A program made the translations under genes and the position numbers. Positions 12,654 through 43,396 of a DNA stretch of 64,000 nt are shown here, piece after piece. The notes beneath the pieces were generated by a model that was given only the letters and a program-made list of their open reading frames with translations, was not told where the DNA came from and searched no databases. The stretch comes from Escherichia phage phiWec179. How positions within the stretch are numbered: position 1 is the stretch's first letter; each line of letters begins with the position of its first letter. The DNA is taken from sequence record LC739533.1. One strand, 5' to 3'.

Positions 12654-12859
12654 GCGGTTGGATTAAGGTATCTGGCACCGAAGATGTTCCTGTAGGAGAG
12701 TGGCTTGTCATCATGGCAGACGGCAAGAAGGGCTTCTGTGAGGTGCACAAAGCCGCAAAAGGGACAATAGCAGTCATTAACCGTTTATTTTACTTTGACT
12801 GTGAACCTGTAATAGCGTATCATGCATTACCAACTTATGAAGAGGAGACTAACAAATGA
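12650..12859 (+). CDS. Hypothetical protein (69 aa)
   Basis: 4-nt overlap coupling. Confidence 0.55.
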   Translation: MSGWIKVSGTEDVPVGEWLVIMADGKKGFCEVHKAAKGTIAVINRLFYFDCEPVIAYHALPTYEEETNK

Positions 12860-13152
12860 GCCTTACCACTATGCACAAAACACTGCTCAAACTATTTAAC
12901 AATCAACGTAATCTTTTGATCGAAGATTTCCGTAGCTTTAAACGTAACAAGGTCAATCGTGCCTACATGCCTCATTCAGCCTTTGATGCCACGTTAAAAG
13001 AGTTTCGTAACCGTATCTCTGAAATGGATGCTTACATCCGTGGCACAAAGCTTGCACGCACAGTAACTATCCAAACAGGATTGTTGCACTTTTATGATGG
13101 AACTACCGGATCGATCTACAATCCAGACAGCATAGAGAATTATTTAAAATAG
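12856..13152 (+). CDS. Hypothetical protein (98 aa)
   Basis: 4-nt overlap coupling; last gene before the structured intergenic region. Confidence 0.55.
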   Translation: MSLTTMHKTLLKLFNNQRNLLIEDFRSFKRNKVNRAYMPHSAFDATLKEFRNRISEMDAYIRGTKLARTVTIQTGLLHFYDGTTGSIYNPDSIENYLK

Positions 13153-13354
13153 TTGTTGACTTTGATATACGAAGTATGCTACCCTACCCACGAAGTGCCG
13201 AGCGGGAGCGAGGTATAAGTGTTACCCTCCCGTTAGGGTAGAGGGTAGTAATTATAGTTTCTATCGTTAGATTGTTCGAAGAACAGAAACTTAGATCTTG
13301 TTCTTATCGTTAGATGATCGTAAGATCAAGAACATAATATAGAGGAGATAAAGA

Positions 13355-13891
13355 ATGAAATTGTTAGACTATGCGATGGTTATGGATCTTAGTGTGCTTC
13401 GTGACGATGCTCAATACATGACACAGAACCAGGATGGCACCTTAAACCTGTATTCTGCCTATCCACGTAATCATGGTCCAGTTACAACTTACGGTTGGGG
13501 TGATAGCAACTTCCTGGATTACTACCCAGCACCACGTAGCCTGGAAACTGCTGAAGATTGGTTCCACTCTATTATCAACTTGCAAGCAATCCGTGACTAC
13601 CAAGAGAGTGGGTCAGATAGCAACCTGGCAAATACATTGGGAACGTTGAATACCATCTCTTACAAAGAGAAGCCGCCTAAGCTTTACTTCCTGCGGGATA
13701 TTCCAGAAGGCACTTTCTTTGTCTATGGCGGTGCTGACGCTTCTGGTGAGCCTCCTATCTGGCAGAAAGTAGATGGCGGTTTAGCAGTTATGTTTGATAC
13801 AGGGATCACTTCTCCGCAAGATACTTTCTCTCAAGATCGTGTGTGGAAAATCTTGAAAGCGCATCTGACTGTTAGCCCAATCCGAGAATAA
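13355..13891 (+). CDS. Hypothetical protein (178 aa)
   Basis: Intact ORF with GAGGAG RBS. Confidence 0.6.
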   Translation: MKLLDYAMVMDLSVLRDDAQYMTQNQDGTLNLYSAYPRNHGPVTTYGWGDSNFLDYYPAPRSLETAEDWFHSIINLQAIRDYQESGSDSNLANTLGTLNTISYKEKPPKLYFLRDIPEGTFFVYGGADASGEPPIWQKVDGGLAVMFDTGITSPQDTFSQDRVWKILKAHLTVSPIRE

Positions 13892-13911
13892 TCCTAATCT
13901 GCAAATAAGTC

Positions 13912-13940
13912 TTGATCACGAGGTTGTATTCTGATAGAAT
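13912..13940 (+). promoter_or_regulatory. sigma70-like promoter (TTGATC-N17-TAGAAT)
   Basis: Hexamers at 13912-13917 and 13935-13940, upstream of the ORF at 13970. Confidence 0.5.
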
Positions 13941-13969
13941 GCAATCTCACTAAACAAAAGGAGATTTAA

Positions 13970-14167
13970 ATGGCTACGAAGAAACAAAAAATGAAGTGTC
14001 TGTCACTGACTCAACTGGGGCATAGTTCTGGTTGTGTGACGATCGGAAAAACCTACTCCACCACTTTGAATAAAGAGAACAACAGCTTTACATTCAAAGA
14101 TGACAATGGTAACATGCAAGTGGGGATTTACCCTGAGTGTGCATTCGGTACTTGGGAAAAAGTTTAA
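13970..14167 (+). CDS. Hypothetical protein (65 aa)
   Basis: ORF with AAGGAG RBS. Confidence 0.5.
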   Translation: MATKKQKMKCLSLTQLGHSSGCVTIGKTYSTTLNKENNSFTFKDDNGNMQVGIYPECAFGTWEKV

Positions 14168-14186: not shown

Positions 14187-14360
14187 ATGCAAGACAAGAA
14201 AAACAATGTTCGTTATGCTTTGTACGGACGTATGGGCGTAGACTGCGAATGGAGACTTCTGTTACAGCGTATTCCCTCTTATCAAGAAGCTATGACGAAG
14301 AGAGAACATTATAAGAAGACGTGGAGACACGTTGTTTGCAAACATTACGAGGAGGCATAA
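14187..14360 (+). CDS. Small hypothetical protein (57 aa)
   Basis: MQDKKNNVRYALYGRMGVDCEWRLL...; GGAGGGAG RBS; stop overlaps the next ATG (TAATG); not in the ORF track. Confidence 0.4.
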   Translation: MQDKKNNVRYALYGRMGVDCEWRLLLQRIPSYQEAMTKREHYKKTWRHVVCKHYEEA

Positions 14361-14668
14361 TGAGCACATTATCAACAGCAGTCAAGTTCCACCAGGATTA
14401 TGAAGAAGCTGTCAAAGATGCTGACAATCCTTCCTCATTAGTGTTTGAGGATCGTACAGGTTTGAAGTGGGTTAAATCTTTCGATGAGATCTATTTCTGG
14501 TATCCGCAGGGAGCCACAAGCAATAGTTCTCTGTATAGCTACGAACTGGAATACCGTGGCCCTGTAGACGAAGATGAAAACTTTATCATGTATTTCGTAA
14601 ATAATGGTTGCGGTGAAACGTTTAATGTTGTATTCTCTAAAGCAGATGAGTCTGACGAGGAGGTGTAA
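14360..14668 (+). CDS. Hypothetical protein (102 aa), tandem paralog 1
   Basis: Start at MSTLSTAVKF after GAGGAGG RBS; shares ELEYRGPVDEDENFIMYFVNNGCGETFNVVF with the next gene. Confidence 0.6.
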   Translation: MSTLSTAVKFHQDYEEAVKDADNPSSLVFEDRTGLKWVKSFDEIYFWYPQGATSNSSLYSYELEYRGPVDEDENFIMYFVNNGCGETFNVVFSKADESDEEV

Positions 14669-14973
14669 TGCAGTACAATACGACTTTAAGTTTGGCAGTT
14701 GCAGCCCACATGCTGTACAATGATTCTGTGAAGGATGAGTTGTCGCCTGTGAGTTTAGCTTTCTATCTGATAGAAAGGGATTGGATGTTCTCTGGTGAGG
14801 ACGAAATCTACTACGTAAATTCGCGCGGTTTTATTGAAAGTTTTGAACTTGAACATCGCGCACCGACAGCAGAAGATGATCGTTTTATTATGTTCTGTGT
14901 AAATGATGGTTACGGAGAGGTATATGACGTAGTATTCTTCAAAAACCGACAGAAGACTGAAGAGGAATTCTAA
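14668..14973 (+). CDS. Hypothetical protein (101 aa), tandem paralog 2
   Basis: Carries ELEHRAPTAEDDRFIMFCVNDGYGEVYDVVF, matching the previous gene. Confidence 0.6.
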   Translation: MQYNTTLSLAVAAHMLYNDSVKDELSPVSLAFYLIERDWMFSGEDEIYYVNSRGFIESFELEHRAPTAEDDRFIMFCVNDGYGEVYDVVFFKNRQKTEEEF

Positions 14974-19361: not shown

Positions 19362-20853
19362 GTCGATGGAAGAATTAGTTAAATATTATGTCCACACAGA
19401 AGACCTGACAGACGCAGAGTTTACCAAGATTTATGATCTGTGCGAACAGCTTCAACCTGGCCCGTGGAACAGTGAAGAAGACTTCCGTGCCGATGTTAAT
19501 CAAGATACAGGGTTTTTGTTCTTCGATCCTGCTAATGGCATTGATGCCGTACACAACGAAGATTATATCCCAGCAGGTCTTTCTGTTACCACTACAGAGC
19601 ATTTCGTTGATCTGCTTTTGGAGACAGCTTGGTGTGATTCCAAACCAATCTACTACTGCATGAAGGATACGCTACGTATGGCAGCAAGTCGCCTGTATGA
19701 CGGGAACTCTCGCTTATATACGGCTGTAGCCGAGCTTTATGGTAATGGTTGGACTGCCGATCAACTCCAAAAAGCTTGGGAAGAAGGGCGTGGTGGGCGT
19801 GACGTTGTTATTTTCTCTGAAGTTTTAGGGGTGGATTCTATCGCTTATGAAAATATTCCACGCTTAGGGACAAAACCAGAAATCATTGATGGAGAAGAAA
19901 TGTTAGATCTTATTTTAGCTAAAGTGGCAGGGCGATCTATTCACGAAGTGTGCGTATCTACCAGAAAGATCTCCACAAGTCAAATGGAATCTCTTTTAAA
20001 GATTTTCACCCTGGTGACTGGTGAAGGGTATTGGAAAGATGCTGAACATTTTCTGATGTATAGTCGTGGTCTGTCTGAACACTACTCTTTCTATAGTTCT
20101 AAGTCGGGGATTGATGGTCACAACAGTCCACAAGGATTAGAAATAGGTGTTGACGAATTTATCAAACTGTTTTTGAAGCATTTAGGTATTGACAATACCG
20201 AGAAATCATTGGAAGATATCCTTGCTGACTTAACAAAAGAAGGAGAAGAAGTGGAAGAGAATACTTTTGAAGTTGAAGAATATGTGGAAGAATACCTTCC
20301 GAACCCTGGGTTCCCTCCAGAGGGTAATCCTTATGTGAAGATCGTCTGCCGTAACGGGCAAACTTTCACAGGTCCAGCCGACGATATGGGTTGGAGGGTC
20401 GATGAGAACCATCCCCATGATCTGGATATGGTGAAATATATGATTGTTCCGCGTGTAGCCAAAGTGGAGGCTGCTCCAGATGAGGTAGTTGCTCCGGTAT
20501 ATGCACCGAAGCCACGTTATCGTAAGACGCGCCAAAAGCCTCCTGTAGGTAAGAAGCCAGTTGTGCGTATTCTCTACACTACACAACAAACGTACATGTT
20601 TAAGAATGTGGACAGTGTGCAGGTTACAGGTGAGAAAGTGTATATCCAGTATGCTCGTAATATTGCAGAAGGTATTGTTGAGTCTGTTGTTTCCGAGATC
20701 GACAGCAATCTGCTTCTCGCAGTGGTGATTGAAGAGAATGGACACCGTGATAATTTCTTAGCTAACATCGACGGTTCTTGGGATTACCAAGGGCATGATG
20801 GTACTGCCGTTAAAGGTGGTAAGCTGATGGGACGACAGTTCCTTTCTAAATAA
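19354..20853 (+). CDS. Hypothetical protein (499 aa)
   Basis: Long ORF followed by an intrinsic terminator; no motif recognised. Confidence 0.6.
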   Translation: MNKSMEELVKYYVHTEDLTDAEFTKIYDLCEQLQPGPWNSEEDFRADVNQDTGFLFFDPANGIDAVHNEDYIPAGLSVTTTEHFVDLLLETAWCDSKPIYYCMKDTLRMAASRLYDGNSRLYTAVAELYGNGWTADQLQKAWEEGRGGRDVVIFSEVLGVDSIAYENIPRLGTKPEIIDGEEMLDLILAKVAGRSIHEVCVSTRKISTSQMESLLKIFTLVTGEGYWKDAEHFLMYSRGLSEHYSFYSSKSGIDGHNSPQGLEIGVDEFIKLFLKHLGIDNTEKSLEDILADLTKEGEEVEENTFEVEEYVEEYLPNPGFPPEGNPYVKIVCRNGQTFTGPADDMGWRVDENHPHDLDMVKYMIVPRVAKVEAAPDEVVAPVYAPKPRYRKTRQKPPVGKKPVVRILYTTQQTYMFKNVDSVQVTGEKVYIQYARNIAEGIVESVVSEIDSNLLLAVVIEENGHRDNFLANIDGSWDYQGHDGTAVKGGKLMGRQFLSK

Positions 20854-20861
20854 TAAATAAG

Positions 20862-20886
20862 AAGGCGCTAAGTGCGCCTTTTTTGA
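20862..20886 (+). terminator. Rho-independent terminator
   Basis: Stem AAGGCGC / GCGCCTT with 5-nt loop, followed by TTTTTT. Confidence 0.7.
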
Positions 20887-20954
20887 TCCTGAACAAAGTC
20901 TTTCGATGGATAAATGGTAAAATAGAATCTCAATCTATTAAATAAGGAACCCAC

Positions 20955-40721: not shown

Positions 40722-40745
40722 AGGGGCGCAAGCCCCTCTTGACTT
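40722..40745 (+). terminator. Terminator-like hairpin (AGGGGC-GCAA-GCCCCT)
   Basis: After the primase-helicase stop; followed by CTTGACTTTTGATT. Confidence 0.45.
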
Positions 40746-40798
40746 TTGATTGAGGAATGTGATACCCTTCAGGTTGAGTTACATAATATGGAGGACTA

Positions 40799-43396
40799 AT
40801 GAGTAAGTTTACATGGGATATTGAAGCAACCGCATTACTGAACAATGACACAATTGATTACCTGGCAAGCCCTTATCGATTGAAAGACACTTTTGGTATG
40901 CATTGTATTTGTCTGGAAAACCACGAAACAGGAGAGATCATTGCTTTTCACGATGGTCCTAAGTACATTTTCGATGGTCGTCCTTATGAAGAGTCTGACG
41001 GTAAGTACACTTATGTACTGAAGGAGTATGTGGCACAAGAATACACACACTTTCCTCTGTCAGATTTTCCAGATTTTGTCAACCATACAGGCAAGTTCGC
41101 AGATAAGCCTGAATACCTCGTAGAAATGGCTGTAGCCCACAACGGCATCAACTATGACCACTTGGCAGTTAAGCTTTACTACGGGCTGAATTACAGCGTT
41201 AAATACAATACTTGGGGTGATTCGAAAGTTAAGATTATTGATACCCTGATCCTTAGTAAAGTATTGAACCCTGATCGCAAGGTTGATGGTAAACCTGGGC
41301 ACAACTTGAATGCTCTTTCTAAAAAAGCTGGCGGTGATGTTAAGATTGATTTCCGTAAAGAGCTTCCAGAAGGAGAACGATTCAAGACTTTCGCAGCAGA
41401 TATGTTGTACTACTGTATCTACGACAACAAGGCAACTACAGCAGTATATTATTACCTCATGGAAGAATGGGGCGATTATAAGAAGTGGCAAGAGCCGTTC
41501 GACTTGGAGCAACGTATTGCGGATATCATCACCCGTCAAGAACACCGTGGCTTTAAGTTCAACATGCAACAAGCTGAACAGAACCTGGAATTCTTGGACA
41601 AAGAAATGGAACGTCTACGTTTGTTGGTAGAGCCTATTCTTCCACCTAAGCCAGCGACTAAAGGTTATCTGAAAGATTTTATTCCGCCGAAACTTCAAAT
41701 CAAGAAGAACGGTGAGCCAACAAACCATATCATCAGGTTTGCGGAGAAACATGGCGGTAGCCTTGAAGAACGTGAAGGTGATTGGTGGCTGCTTGTTTTA
41801 GATAAAGAGTTTAAGTTACCGATCTCAAGTGAAGAACCTATTTGTGAACCTACCATTCCGTCTACGCTGAATGATACGACACACATTAAAAACTGGCTTG
41901 TAGGTTTAGGTTGGGTTCCGTCTGAATATAAAGACAAGGATTTGACGCTTAAATCTGGTTCGAAGATCAAGAAAGATCCTGACGACTTAGAGAAAGGTAT
42001 TCTGTCTTATGTCAAACAGACCTTGGAAAGCAATTTCTGTAATGACCGTTGCGAACACTTACAAGCCGATGCTGAAACACTGGAGCTTAGAATCCGTGAA
42101 CGTCTGGCTAAAGGGAAAGGTCGTGGTCTTAAAGTGCTGACCAACCCATGCTTCACGAAGGGGCAGGAGAAAGAGATTTGTCCTAATCTTGAAGCACTGG
42201 GCGAGAAGTTCCCGTATGCCACACAGATTGTGCAGTACCTGACGTACAAACATCGTCGAAACTCTATTTTGGGCGGTGGTGCAGATTGGGAAGACGATGA
42301 GGAAGATCAAGAATACGACAAAGGTTTCTTGGCAGCAGTTCGTGCCGATGGTCGTATAGCGACTCCAGCGGCTACATGTGACGCTGCAACATCTCGTATG
42401 AAGCATCGCTCTGTTGCTAACGTTCCTCGCGTTACATCGTTGTTTGGGTACGAAATGCGTAACTTGTTTGGGGTAGAAACACCGCGTTACTTCCAGATCG
42501 GTTATGACTTTGACTCCTTGGAAGCAAAGATTGAGTCGCATTATTGTTGGCGCTACGAACCGGAGCCTCATGAATACTGTAACGCTCTCTTGTTGGAGAA
42601 GCCTAACGATGTTCATACCATGATGGCAAGACGTATCACAGAAACTATTGGACGTAAGTTTGAACGTAGTCCAGCTAAATCTGTTAAATACGGGATTACA
42701 TATGGAGCACAGGCAGACAAAGTTGCTAAGACAATTGGTAGTGATAAGTACACAGGACAACTGGTATTTGATGCGTTCTGGGAAGCAGCTTTCCCGTTAG
42801 CACAACTGAAAGAGAAGTTGAATGCTTTCTGGGTTAACACTGGCAAGCAGTATGTTCTCGGTATTGATGGACGTAAAGTTCCAACACGATCTGCACATGC
42901 AATCTTAAACTCCTTGTTCCAAAGTGGCGGGGTTATCTGTGCCAAGCGTGCAATGGTAATCTATGACGATATGATTGAAGAGGAAGGTTTAGCTGTTGAC
43001 TTCTTCGTAGATGACTGGAAGAATAAAGAGTTCGTTCAGCAAATGATTGCTTACCACGATGAAGCGCAGCTTGAAGTATCTCGTAACTTGGTGGAATTTA
43101 AATGGTTCTCCAAAGAGTCTTTAGGTTGGGTTAAAGTGGATGACGAGAAAGAGCAGAAGAAAATAGATGCGGAATGTCTTGCAAAAGCTAATGAATGGAA
43201 GCATAATAAAGAGAAAGAGACAGGGCAGATTTGGGCTAACGTTCACGAATCACCTAAAGGTGGTTGGTTTACCGCTTATAGTCGTGCCGGAGAACTTGCT
43301 TCTCTTGCTGTTATCAAAGCTGGGGAATATTACAAACTAAACGTTCAGCTTACCGCTGGATACGATGTTGGTAGTTCCTGGGCCAGTTGTCATTGA
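40799..43396 (+). CDS. Family A DNA polymerase with 3'-5' proofreading exonuclease
   Basis: Exo I FTWDIEAT; motif A IGYDFDSLEAK; motif B RSPAKSVKYGITYG; motif C IAYHDEAQ. Confidence 0.85.
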   Translation: MSKFTWDIEATALLNNDTIDYLASPYRLKDTFGMHCICLENHETGEIIAFHDGPKYIFDGRPYEESDGKYTYVLKEYVAQEYTHFPLSDFPDFVNHTGKFADKPEYLVEMAVAHNGINYDHLAVKLYYGLNYSVKYNTWGDSKVKIIDTLILSKVLNPDRKVDGKPGHNLNALSKKAGGDVKIDFRKELPEGERFKTFAADMLYYCIYDNKATTAVYYYLMEEWGDYKKWQEPFDLEQRIADIITRQEHRGFKFNMQQAEQNLEFLDKEMERLRLLVEPILPPKPATKGYLKDFIPPKLQIKKNGEPTNHIIRFAEKHGGSLEEREGDWWLLVLDKEFKLPISSEEPICEPTIPSTLNDTTHIKNWLVGLGWVPSEYKDKDLTLKSGSKIKKDPDDLEKGILSYVKQTLESNFCNDRCEHLQADAETLELRIRERLAKGKGRGLKVLTNPCFTKGQEKEICPNLEALGEKFPYATQIVQYLTYKHRRNSILGGGADWEDDEEDQEYDKGFLAAVRADGRIATPAATCDAATSRMKHRSVANVPRVTSLFGYEMRNLFGVETPRYFQIGYDFDSLEAKIESHYCWRYEPEPHEYCNALLLEKPNDVHTMMARRITETIGRKFERSPAKSVKYGITYGAQADKVAKTIGSDKYTGQLVFDAFWEAAFPLAQLKEKLNAFWVNTGKQYVLGIDGRKVPTRSAHAILNSLFQSGGVICAKRAMVIYDDMIEEEGLAVDFFVDDWKNKEFVQQMIAYHDEAQLEVSRNLVEFKWFSKESLGWVKVDDEKEQKKIDAECLAKANEWKHNKEKETGQIWANVHESPKGGWFTAYSRAGELASLAVIKAGEYYKLNVQLTAGYDVGSSWASCH

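Follow-up and report, generated by a model that had tools for sequence, protein, structure and literature searches.

A predicted host-type promoter and a conserved hairpin-rich leader in an intergenic spacer of an Escherichia phage

We propose that the 202-nt spacer between two small genes of Escherichia phage phiWec179 most likely holds an unannotated host-type sigma-70 promoter, the activity of which we infer from its sequence. We further propose, with a confidence somewhat better than even, that it heads an mRNA whose leader is conserved and rich in hairpins, these acting post-transcriptionally. The observations on which this reading is based are the motifs, their conservation and copy number, the base pairing with its covariation and the folding bias towards the plus strand. 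Here the window denotes the whole 64-kb stretch of DNA that was analysed, and the coordinates of the features are collected in Table 1. The original prediction of a structured intergenic region is borne out, the spacer being conserved and its repeats and hairpins being conserved and functional-looking; the sequence feature is real, and the mechanism that was then suggested for it, an attenuator or riboswitch, is wrong.

In the proposed pathway, TTGACT-N18-TGcTACCCT (13156-13185) would be recognised by the sigma-70 holoenzyme of the host, and transcription from near G13192 would give an mRNA with a leader of ~160 nt that would contain a 5'-proximal hairpin (H2), an insertion hairpin present in this lineage only and two tandem three-helix modules. 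The hairpins would then most likely act on the finished RNA. The candidate roles are, for the 5' hairpin, a shield against decay or a site for a factor, and, for the hairpins next to the ribosome-binding site, a processing site, a protein-binding site or an influence on the translation context; the stability and translation of the first gene could be set in this way. The hairpins probably do not switch transcription on or off.

Table 1. Coordinates of the spacer, its neighbours, its predicted elements and the cassette copies (window positions unless the phiWec181 record is named)
Feature	Position	Strand	Remarks
Spacer	13153-13354	+	202 nt, between 98-aa ORF and 178-aa ORF
98-aa ORF, upstream neighbour	12856-13152	+	stop codon 13150-13152
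178-aa ORF, downstream neighbour	13355-13891	+	ATG at 13355
-35 hexamer TTGACT	13156-13161	+	5/6 matches to TTGACA; A+T-rich stretch before
Extended -10 TG-c-TACCCT	13177-13185	+	hexamer 13180-13185; 18-nt spacer to -35
Predicted transcription start G	13192	+	7 nt past -10 hexamer; from sigma-70 geometry
5'-proximal hairpin H2, UGCC / GA-GC-GGGA-GC-GA / GGUA	13196-13215	+	covarying lower stem, GCGNNAGC apex
Lineage-specific 22-nt insertion	13223-13244	+	gap in all phAPEC8-type sequences
Insertion hairpin UACCCU-CCC-GUUA-GGG-uag-AGGGUA	13223-13247	+	made by the 22-nt insertion
Module 1, GUUUC [UAUC-GUUA-GAU] [UGUUC-GAA-GAACA] GAAAC	13257-13290	+	
Module 1 outer stem GUUUC/GAAAC	13257-61 with 13286-90	+	two compensatory pair changes versus phAPEC8 AUCUC/GAGAU
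Module 1 mini-hairpin AUC-GUUA-GAU	stems 13263-65, 13270-72	+	within first TATCGTTAGAT
Module 1 hairpin UGUUC-GAA-GAACA	13273-85	+	
Module 2, UGUUCUU [AUC-GUUA-GAU] [GAUC-GUAA-GAUC] AAGAACA	13299-13334	+	
Module 2 outer stem UGUUCUU/AAGAACA	13299-305 with 13328-34	+	
Module 2 mini-hairpin AUC-GUUA-GAU	13306-15	+	in second TATCGTTAGAT
Module 2 hairpin GAUC-GUAA-GAUC	13316-27	+	
Shine-Dalgarno GAGGAG	13342-13347	+	precedes ATG 13355; element 13342-13357
UvrD-like helicase	16917		downstream of small-gene run
NrdD			downstream of small-gene run
Primase-helicase	38934		downstream of small-gene run
DNA polymerase A	40799		downstream of small-gene run
Predicted promoter, same motif class	40739-40768		directly ahead of DNA polymerase gene
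Cassette copy, window	phiWec181 record 61295	+	sense leader of 178-aa gene
Cassette copy	phiWec181 record 20577 (region 20545-20715)	+	antisense into minus-strand small genes
Cassette copy	phiWec181 record 134345 (134100-134380)	-	divergent region, towards small gene and tRNA cluster

The phage phiWec181 (Phapecoctavirus, Stephanstirmvirinae, ~154 kb) is 99.8% identical to the window over positions 12800-14000 in the DNA comparison. The two ORFs that flank the spacer belong to a series of small genes whose functions are unknown. The 178-aa ORF matched no family in PHROG or Pfam, and its restriction to five phage records suggests an accessory gene that was gained recently. Within the window, the adjacent ORFs 14321-14668 and 14668-14973 both match phrog_7812, which suggests a tandem duplication, its function being unknown. 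Note also that the UAUAG-GAG context ahead of the Shine-Dalgarno sequence is common to the type A leaders.

The conservation of the spacer differs from that of its flanks. In DNA searches the flanking genes were matched by five records only, whereas the block 13260-13339 alone is ~90% identical in ~60 further Phapecoctavirus records, which with a shorter query also match the promoter-proximal part. In the alignments the promoter hexamers are invariant and the block with the two TATCGTTAGAT is almost invariant, while the upstream 98-aa protein has ~41% identity between the window and phAPEC8 and the first downstream gene is the 178-aa ORF in the window and a 65-aa ORF in phAPEC8 and phiWec188. 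In phiWec188 and phiWec190 this 65-aa ORF, a homologue of phAPEC8 gp236, lies between the leader and the 178-aa gene, and its indel falls exactly between two copies of AGGAG, of which the window has one (L002 2036-2246 versus 13340-13357); this suggests that the ORF was gained or lost by microhomology between AGGAG ribosome-binding sites. The cassette of promoter and hairpin is also a boundary where gene content differs between relatives. No similarity was seen in 5,426 E. coli genomes, which were searched as a check for host mimicry. A scan of IMG/VR for two TATCGNTAGA spaced 25-45 nt apart gave 73 loci, with the near-identical phage L015 being the only true relative and the others being tandem repeats or chance matches.

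It could be argued from these breakpoints that the conservation merely reflects recombination, with the block being a PeSL-like patch of shared homology for gene swaps in which only the promoter is functional. The flanks do diverge sharply at both ends of the block, the first downstream gene does vary among the relatives, and the position of the 65-aa ORF indel is what this explanation would lead one to expect. However, the substitutions within the block avoid breaking the helices, and the structure is held in distant relatives despite the changed sequence, as described below, so that we regard the explanation as decidedly improbable.

We now consider the promoter. It had been stated that no clean promoter hexamers are present here. 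This is mistaken, as TTGACT-N18-TG-c-TACCCT constitutes a good -35 and an extended -10, which escapes a simple hexamer scan since TACCCT shares only three of six positions with TATAAT; that TACCCT is a weak -10 hexamer is a point against the predicted promoter. Among the relatives TGCTACCCTA is kept while the sequence between the -35 and the -10 is variable in the alignments, and the -35 is an invariant TTGAC(T/A) in most relatives across genera, TTTTAC standing in its place in the type C copies L085, L088 and L264. The distance between the two elements is 18 nt in the window and 17 nt in phAPEC8, KP13-16 and PATM, and both hexamers and spacing are kept in Phapecoctavirus, Justusliebigvirus, the Klebsiella phages and Citrobacter phage Tr1. 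Of the 19 distinct family sequences listed, 17 have a purine at the predicted start. A short inverted repeat over the predicted start (ACCC..GGGT and similar) was also considered and was discarded, being present in some copies only.

Moreover, the motif TTGAC-N16-19-TGnTAnnnT is found six times in the 64-kb window versus 0.87 expected, a number reached by none of the shuffles, and the four of these six sites that were inspected (13156, 8428 on the minus strand, 45226 and the one before the DNA polymerase gene) each lie just upstream of an ORF start. The predicted promoter of the DNA polymerase A gene is of the same class, with a leader that is short and unstructured; at window 40722-40810, TTGACTTTTGATTGAGGAATGTGATACCCT comes immediately after GGGGCGCAAGCCCC, a hairpin resembling a terminator, and the DNA polymerase A gene comes next. 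For rV5-like phages sigma-70 promoters have been reported, 11 of 33 with an extended -10 (PMC3606486), and beyond promoter lists made in silico for rV5 and for ASO2A, the literature yielded nothing on transcription in such phages. With a conserved promoter present, the next genes need not rely on read-through, by which the next operon had been supposed to be controlled.

In the original prediction, CTACCCTACCC and TACCCTCCC were each to pair with AGGGTAGAGGGTAG, giving mutually exclusive stems. The first and the last of these segments are located as claimed, at 13179-13189 and 13235-13248, and TACCCTCCC is also present, at 13223-13231 rather than at 13222-13230. A transcription attenuator or riboswitch would then arise from competition of 13179-13189 and 13223-13231 for 13235-13248, deciding read-through. 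It is true that the three segments are complementary, and that the minimum-free-energy (MFE) structure of the full spacer contains the long-range stem while folding from the predicted start gives the local one. However, both the local stem (13223-31/13235-48) and the long-range stem (13179-89/13236-48) need the 22-nt insertion, which is restricted to the phiWec181 group (5 records) and is missing in the ~65 other Phapecoctavirus records, so that the pairing of the CTACCC/GGGTAG stems, the conservation of which in relatives had been named as the test, is possible in only 5 of ~70 relatives. It is this insertion that also creates the complementarity to the -10 region, and no further copy of the inserted hairpin was found in the phiWec181 genome. 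In addition, the long-range arm 13179-13189 consists of the -10 element and the discriminator; since it is upstream of the predicted start at ~13192, it would lie outside the RNA made from that start and be present only in read-through transcripts. Folding from the predicted start gives three independent elements, namely the hairpin at the 5' end, that of the insertion and the region of the modules.

An attenuator would moreover be expected to have parts that were not seen. No intrinsic terminator was found in 13153-13354, the sequence past 13334 reading UAAUAUAG. There is no conserved leader peptide, the same ATG in phAPEC8 being followed by a stop after 3 codons, and the two 21-codon ORFs that overlap the promoter are without a ribosome-binding site and are not conserved. 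Against Rfam there was no match, and hence no aptamer, at E <=10 in the window region, and only chance matches were obtained in the relatives. Because the pairing is unconserved, no terminator follows and the small ORFs over the stems are unconserved, we reject the attenuator or riboswitch, to which we give hardly any probability.

The conserved part of the structure lies elsewhere in the spacer. The plus strand folds better than its shuffles, with z = -4.1 for the whole spacer and z = -3.1 from the predicted start, and the minus strand over the whole spacer folds more weakly than the plus strand (z = -3.2). Because each G·U pair would correspond to A·C in the opposite strand, and because plus-strand folding is stronger, we take the plus strand to be the transcribed sense strand.

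As had been noticed, TATCGTTAGAT occurs twice in the 64-kb window, at exactly 13262-13272 and 13305-13315, and elsewhere in the genome no copy was found in a comparable context; an exact non-overlapping direct repeat of at least 11 nt arises in 0.74% of 5000 dinucleotide shuffles of the 202-nt spacer. Each copy contains a mini-hairpin AUC-GUUA-GAU inside a larger stem-loop module. The TGTTC/GAACA hairpin is likewise real (13273-13277 with 13281-13285), and a second TGTTC/GAACA pair is part of the outer stem of module 2 (13299-13305 with 13328-13334). In the alignment every pair of the six module helices is kept in 8 of 8 Phapecoctavirus variants, these being essentially two haplotypes plus point variants, which makes the covariation statistics of the modules thin. 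The only two single stem substitutions, both C-to-U, in tuntematon and KKP 3954, turn a G-C pair into G·U in module 1 and module 2, respectively. With two copies each of UGUUC and GAACA, the modules could also pair with one another, as they do in the MFE structure; neither a terminator nor a conserved occlusion of the ribosome-binding site tied to these alternatives was found.

More distant relatives carry leaders with one module only, located at the same place 3' of the 98-aa homologue. They are found in the Klebsiella phages KP13-16, KP2025 and phi1_175008, in the contigs L089 and L253, in Citrobacter phage Tr1 and in Justusliebigvirus PATM/phi92. In these leaders the module stem measures 10-13 bp, U·G pairs included, and leads through an internal UGA/GAA loop to a 5-bp apical hairpin, which in KP13-16 amounts to 13 + 3 + 5 pairs in all. 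The apices read CUAUC-GUUA-GAUAG, CUAUC-GUCA-GAUAG, CAUUC-GUA-GAAUG and CGAAC-GUA-GUGAG; in L253 the stem of the mini-hairpin is CAUUC/GAAUG in place of CUAUC/GAUAG. With RNAalifold, five single-module relatives give the same long hairpin with its apical mini-hairpin, and 7 of the 20 pairs are compensatory. The number of GUUA-capped hairpins per leader is three in the lineage of the window, two in phAPEC8 and one in KP13-16. Because pairing is kept or compensated in the variants and in the distant relatives, we regard the repeats as sense-strand hairpins and not as mere repeated words.

The same repeats might be read as double-stranded DNA operators, in which the two TATC-GTTA-GATn dyads bind a dimeric phage regulator that blocks or modulates the upstream promoter. 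The 11-mer is strongly conserved and nearly palindromic, its copies are 43 bp apart (~4 helical turns), and symmetric changes in the two halves of a palindrome, as in L253, also mimic covariation. Against this, the sites are inside longer helices that covary or take G·U, which is asymmetric in duplex DNA; the Tr1 apex CGAAC-GTA-GTGAG is no DNA dyad, PATM has the hairpin without the motif, KP13-16 carries just one site, which caps a 13-bp stem, and the sites lie 70-120 nt downstream of the start and not over the promoter. We therefore consider the operators quite unlikely.

As the first gene past the leader, L081 (1907-1984), L083 (from 1911), L089, L253 and L277 have a small hydrophobic peptide, which in KP13-16 is an unannotated 25-codon ORF. 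The first peptide after the leader in the Klebsiella, Citrobacter and Justusliebigvirus relatives, e.g. MDVTTLRFILLFLLIVIGLIVIPYLYVY..., is probably membrane-spanning.

What the modules do may be considered from their position, with module 2 ending 7 nt ahead of the ribosome-binding site of the first gene. A terminator or 3'-end element would have the hairpins end upstream transcripts or a short RNA from the cassette promoter, with the function of an insulator or of a 3' end for a small-RNA gene. Indeed, in ASO2A (MZ726793) the region 136731-136774, equivalent to window 13297-13339 and thus to module 2, is annotated as a rho-independent terminator (WebGeSTer), and in KP13-16, KP2025, phi1_175008 and L089 the 13-bp stem is followed by UUUUCUUUU. 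This U tract after the hairpin is, however, confined to the KP13-16 group, being absent in the window, phAPEC8, PATM, Tr1 and L253, and the next ribosome-binding site follows within 3-25 nt with no promoter between, so that full termination would silence the next gene. We thus consider a terminator at this place quite unlikely as well, and the ASO2A annotation, with no U tract after it and with the ribosome-binding site of the next gene adjoining, is probably wrong. Occlusion of the ribosome-binding site was also rejected as a conserved mechanism: P(GGAG unpaired) ranges from 0.08 to 0.83 among seven leaders, occlusion being strong in PATM and L089 and absent in phAPEC8 and Tr1. The helices of the window modules are short, with at most ~10 coaxial pairs, which is marginal for RNase III. 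Across the lineages no single one of these features is kept, be it the U tract, the occlusion of the ribosome-binding site or a 20-bp duplex.

Upstream of the modules, hairpin H2 begins ~4 nt from the predicted 5' end, allows tandem G·A and is also folded in the MFE structure. Over 20 distinct cassette copies, 82.9% of the cells pair, versus <=50% with the partners slid; four of the seven pairs are changed on both sides, and the covariation score was reached by 0 of 500 shuffles. The lower stems vary (UGCC/GGUA, UGAC/GUUA, UACC/GGUA, UUAC/GUAG and UUAAC/GUUAA) around a near-invariant C-GA-GC-loop-GC-GA-G with the loops GAA, GCA, GAAA, GAUA and GGGA. The many U·G pairs fit an RNA hairpin. The apex follows the rule GCGNAGC/GCGNNAGC in 19 of the 20 distinct copies, with GCGGGAGC in the window and the type A copy of Tr1, GCGAATGC, as the exception, and this rule is no less suited to a mini-hairpin of DNA than to a loop of RNA (PMC13037366). 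The shape of the loop is compatible with a boxB-like GNRA-type loop, for which no binding partner is known.

The cassette of promoter and H2 occurs exactly three times in the reconstructed phiWec181 genome, and three copies in the same three contexts are also found in a Justusliebigvirus contig and in a Klebsiella-phage-like contig, i.e. in three sampled genomes of three genera. The copy at 20545-20715 fills the gap between CDS 20263-20427 and CDS 20715-20915, and this antisense cassette may make an antisense or non-coding RNA; its equivalents in L085, L088 and L264 are followed by hairpins with a common CAUG, e.g. UUCCAUG-UUAUA-CAUGGAA. The copy upstream of the tRNA cluster has counterparts in L080, L086, L087, L090, L225 and L234; past the ~200 non-coding nt of its leader come very A+T-rich DNA and another TTGACT promoter. 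Comparison of seven sequences showed TGCTCTATA in the leaders of three and TACTCTATA in that of a fourth, L086. As TGCTCTATA, which is confined to the leaders of this cassette, resembles the rrn boxA (TGCTCTTTAACAA), it may be an antitermination signal for the untranslated tRNA transcripts.

Looser scans of IMG/VR and metagenomes with TACCCTA..GAGCG..AGCGAG gave mostly unrelated matches, from which filtering for TG or a -35 left ~10 new true members. Hairpins of the GTCATTCCGAGCGAAGCGAGGAATC type are common in bacterial contigs, and their pairing with TACCCTA is fortuitous. Among the metagenome sequences, hairpins GTCAT(T/C)CC-GAGCG-N-AGCGA-GG(A/G)ATC, which share the apex of the phage hairpin, are found in large numbers in unrelated bacterial contigs (e.g. 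L193, L198, L200, L205, L207, L227, L230, L235, L248, L255 and L261); with flanking stems that covary as ATTCC/GGAAT, ATCCC/GGGAT and ATTTC/GAAAT, they look like a widespread repeat family.

It may be proposed, tentatively and as something that we think rather unlikely and that none of the present tests supports, that H2 is a dedicated recognition element and not a passive stabiliser, either a nut-like RNA site or a GCGNAGC DNA mini-hairpin. In the first case a phage factor would be loaded on the RNA polymerase, leading to processive antitermination of three transcription units, of which one runs into the tRNA cluster and one is antisense; in the second, on the displaced strand, H2 would signal priming or an origin to the phage primase-helicase in a manner coupled to transcription. 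If recognition of this kind is true, the GUUA mini-hairpins would be a locus-specific protein-binding array with a copy number of 1, 2 or 3.

As a full alternative to the post-transcriptional leader, namely that H2 is a loading site for a modifier of RNA polymerase or a displaced-strand priming or initiation signal, this idea is a little less probable still and in our view unlikely. It would be in line with the exactly three copies per genome, each directly after a near-identical promoter, with the phage-encoded primase-helicase, and with the apex rule, since GCGNAGC/GCGNNAGC DNA mini-hairpins are very stable and mark the priming sites of G4 and RSF1010 as well as the three early promoters of N4 (PMC13037366, PMC4496689). 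It is not in line with the window leader, in which 13192-13354 contains no boxA (CGCTCTTA-like), nor with the G·U pairs of the lower stem, which suit RNA, and it leaves the downstream modules unexplained. No RNA polymerase domain was seen in the ten largest window ORFs and none is annotated in the rest of phiWec181, and accordingly no virion RNA polymerase gene was seen. A replication origin at this place was also considered and dropped, as the GC skew has its minimum at ~10 kb, where the gene orientation flips, and not at 13.2 kb.

The preferred reading, a promoter followed by a leader with post-transcriptionally acting hairpins, is of relevance in several respects. The Stephanstirmvirinae (phAPEC8- and phi92-like phages) are common therapy candidates, and in the fetched records of this subfamily the genes here are almost all hypothetical, with neither promoter nor leader marked; the promoter-leader cassette is unannotated and the family of small hairpins is absent from Rfam. 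The present analysis places an unannotated predicted promoter with a conserved structured leader at the head of an early gene block directed towards the replication genes, and across the subfamily a promoter-plus-hairpin cassette marks three predicted transcription starts per sampled genome. It also calls into question the database annotation of a terminator in ASO2A, and it provides handles for mapping early transcription, for finding the factor that reads the hairpins, if any, and for studying the swapping of accessory genes.

Finally, we compare the spacer with known systems. Early promoters with a long structured leader behind them are known from lambda (pL-nutL-N) and from T7, at early RNase III sites such as R0.3. 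The arrangement here is alike in having a small GNRA-type hairpin near the 5' end and an irregular hairpin just before the first ribosome-binding site. It differs from lambda in having no boxA and no known N-like protein. An RNase III site is an irregular duplex of ~20 bp with an internal loop, and the helices in the window are shorter than typical substrates, the KP13-16 version being nearer in length. Stem-loops at the 5' terminus of the ompA type stabilise mRNA, and H2, beginning so close to the predicted 5' end, resembles them; a generic stabiliser, however, needs no invariant apex, and the apex of H2 is near-invariant.

In PeSL elements the terminator stem-loop comes first and many copies are clustered in hyperplastic regions. 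By contrast, here the promoter comes first, with the hairpins in the transcript and with the upstream stop codon abutting the -35, and there are three copies only, in the contexts of a sense leader, an antisense position and the region upstream of the tRNA cluster. The PeSL of T4-type phages is a composite terminator/promoter motif (PMC4122927), and the likeness is that a sigma-70 early promoter and a stem-loop are repeated in the genome at indel and gene-swap junctions (PMC2839356, PMC4122927), the motif being more conserved than the flanking accessory genes.

The hairpins of the N4 early promoters follow the same heptamer/octamer rule, have flanks that are partly conserved and partly covarying, and are present three per genome at initiation sites (PMC13037366, PMC4496689). 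A hairpin promoter of the N4 kind was rejected here, no phage RNA polymerase gene having been found among the ten largest window ORFs or in the annotation of the rest of phiWec181. Moreover, the N4 hairpin occupies template-strand positions -17 to -5 and depends on the virion RNA polymerase (PMC4496689), whereas the present one occupies sense-strand positions ~+5 to +24, past a predicted sigma-70 promoter.
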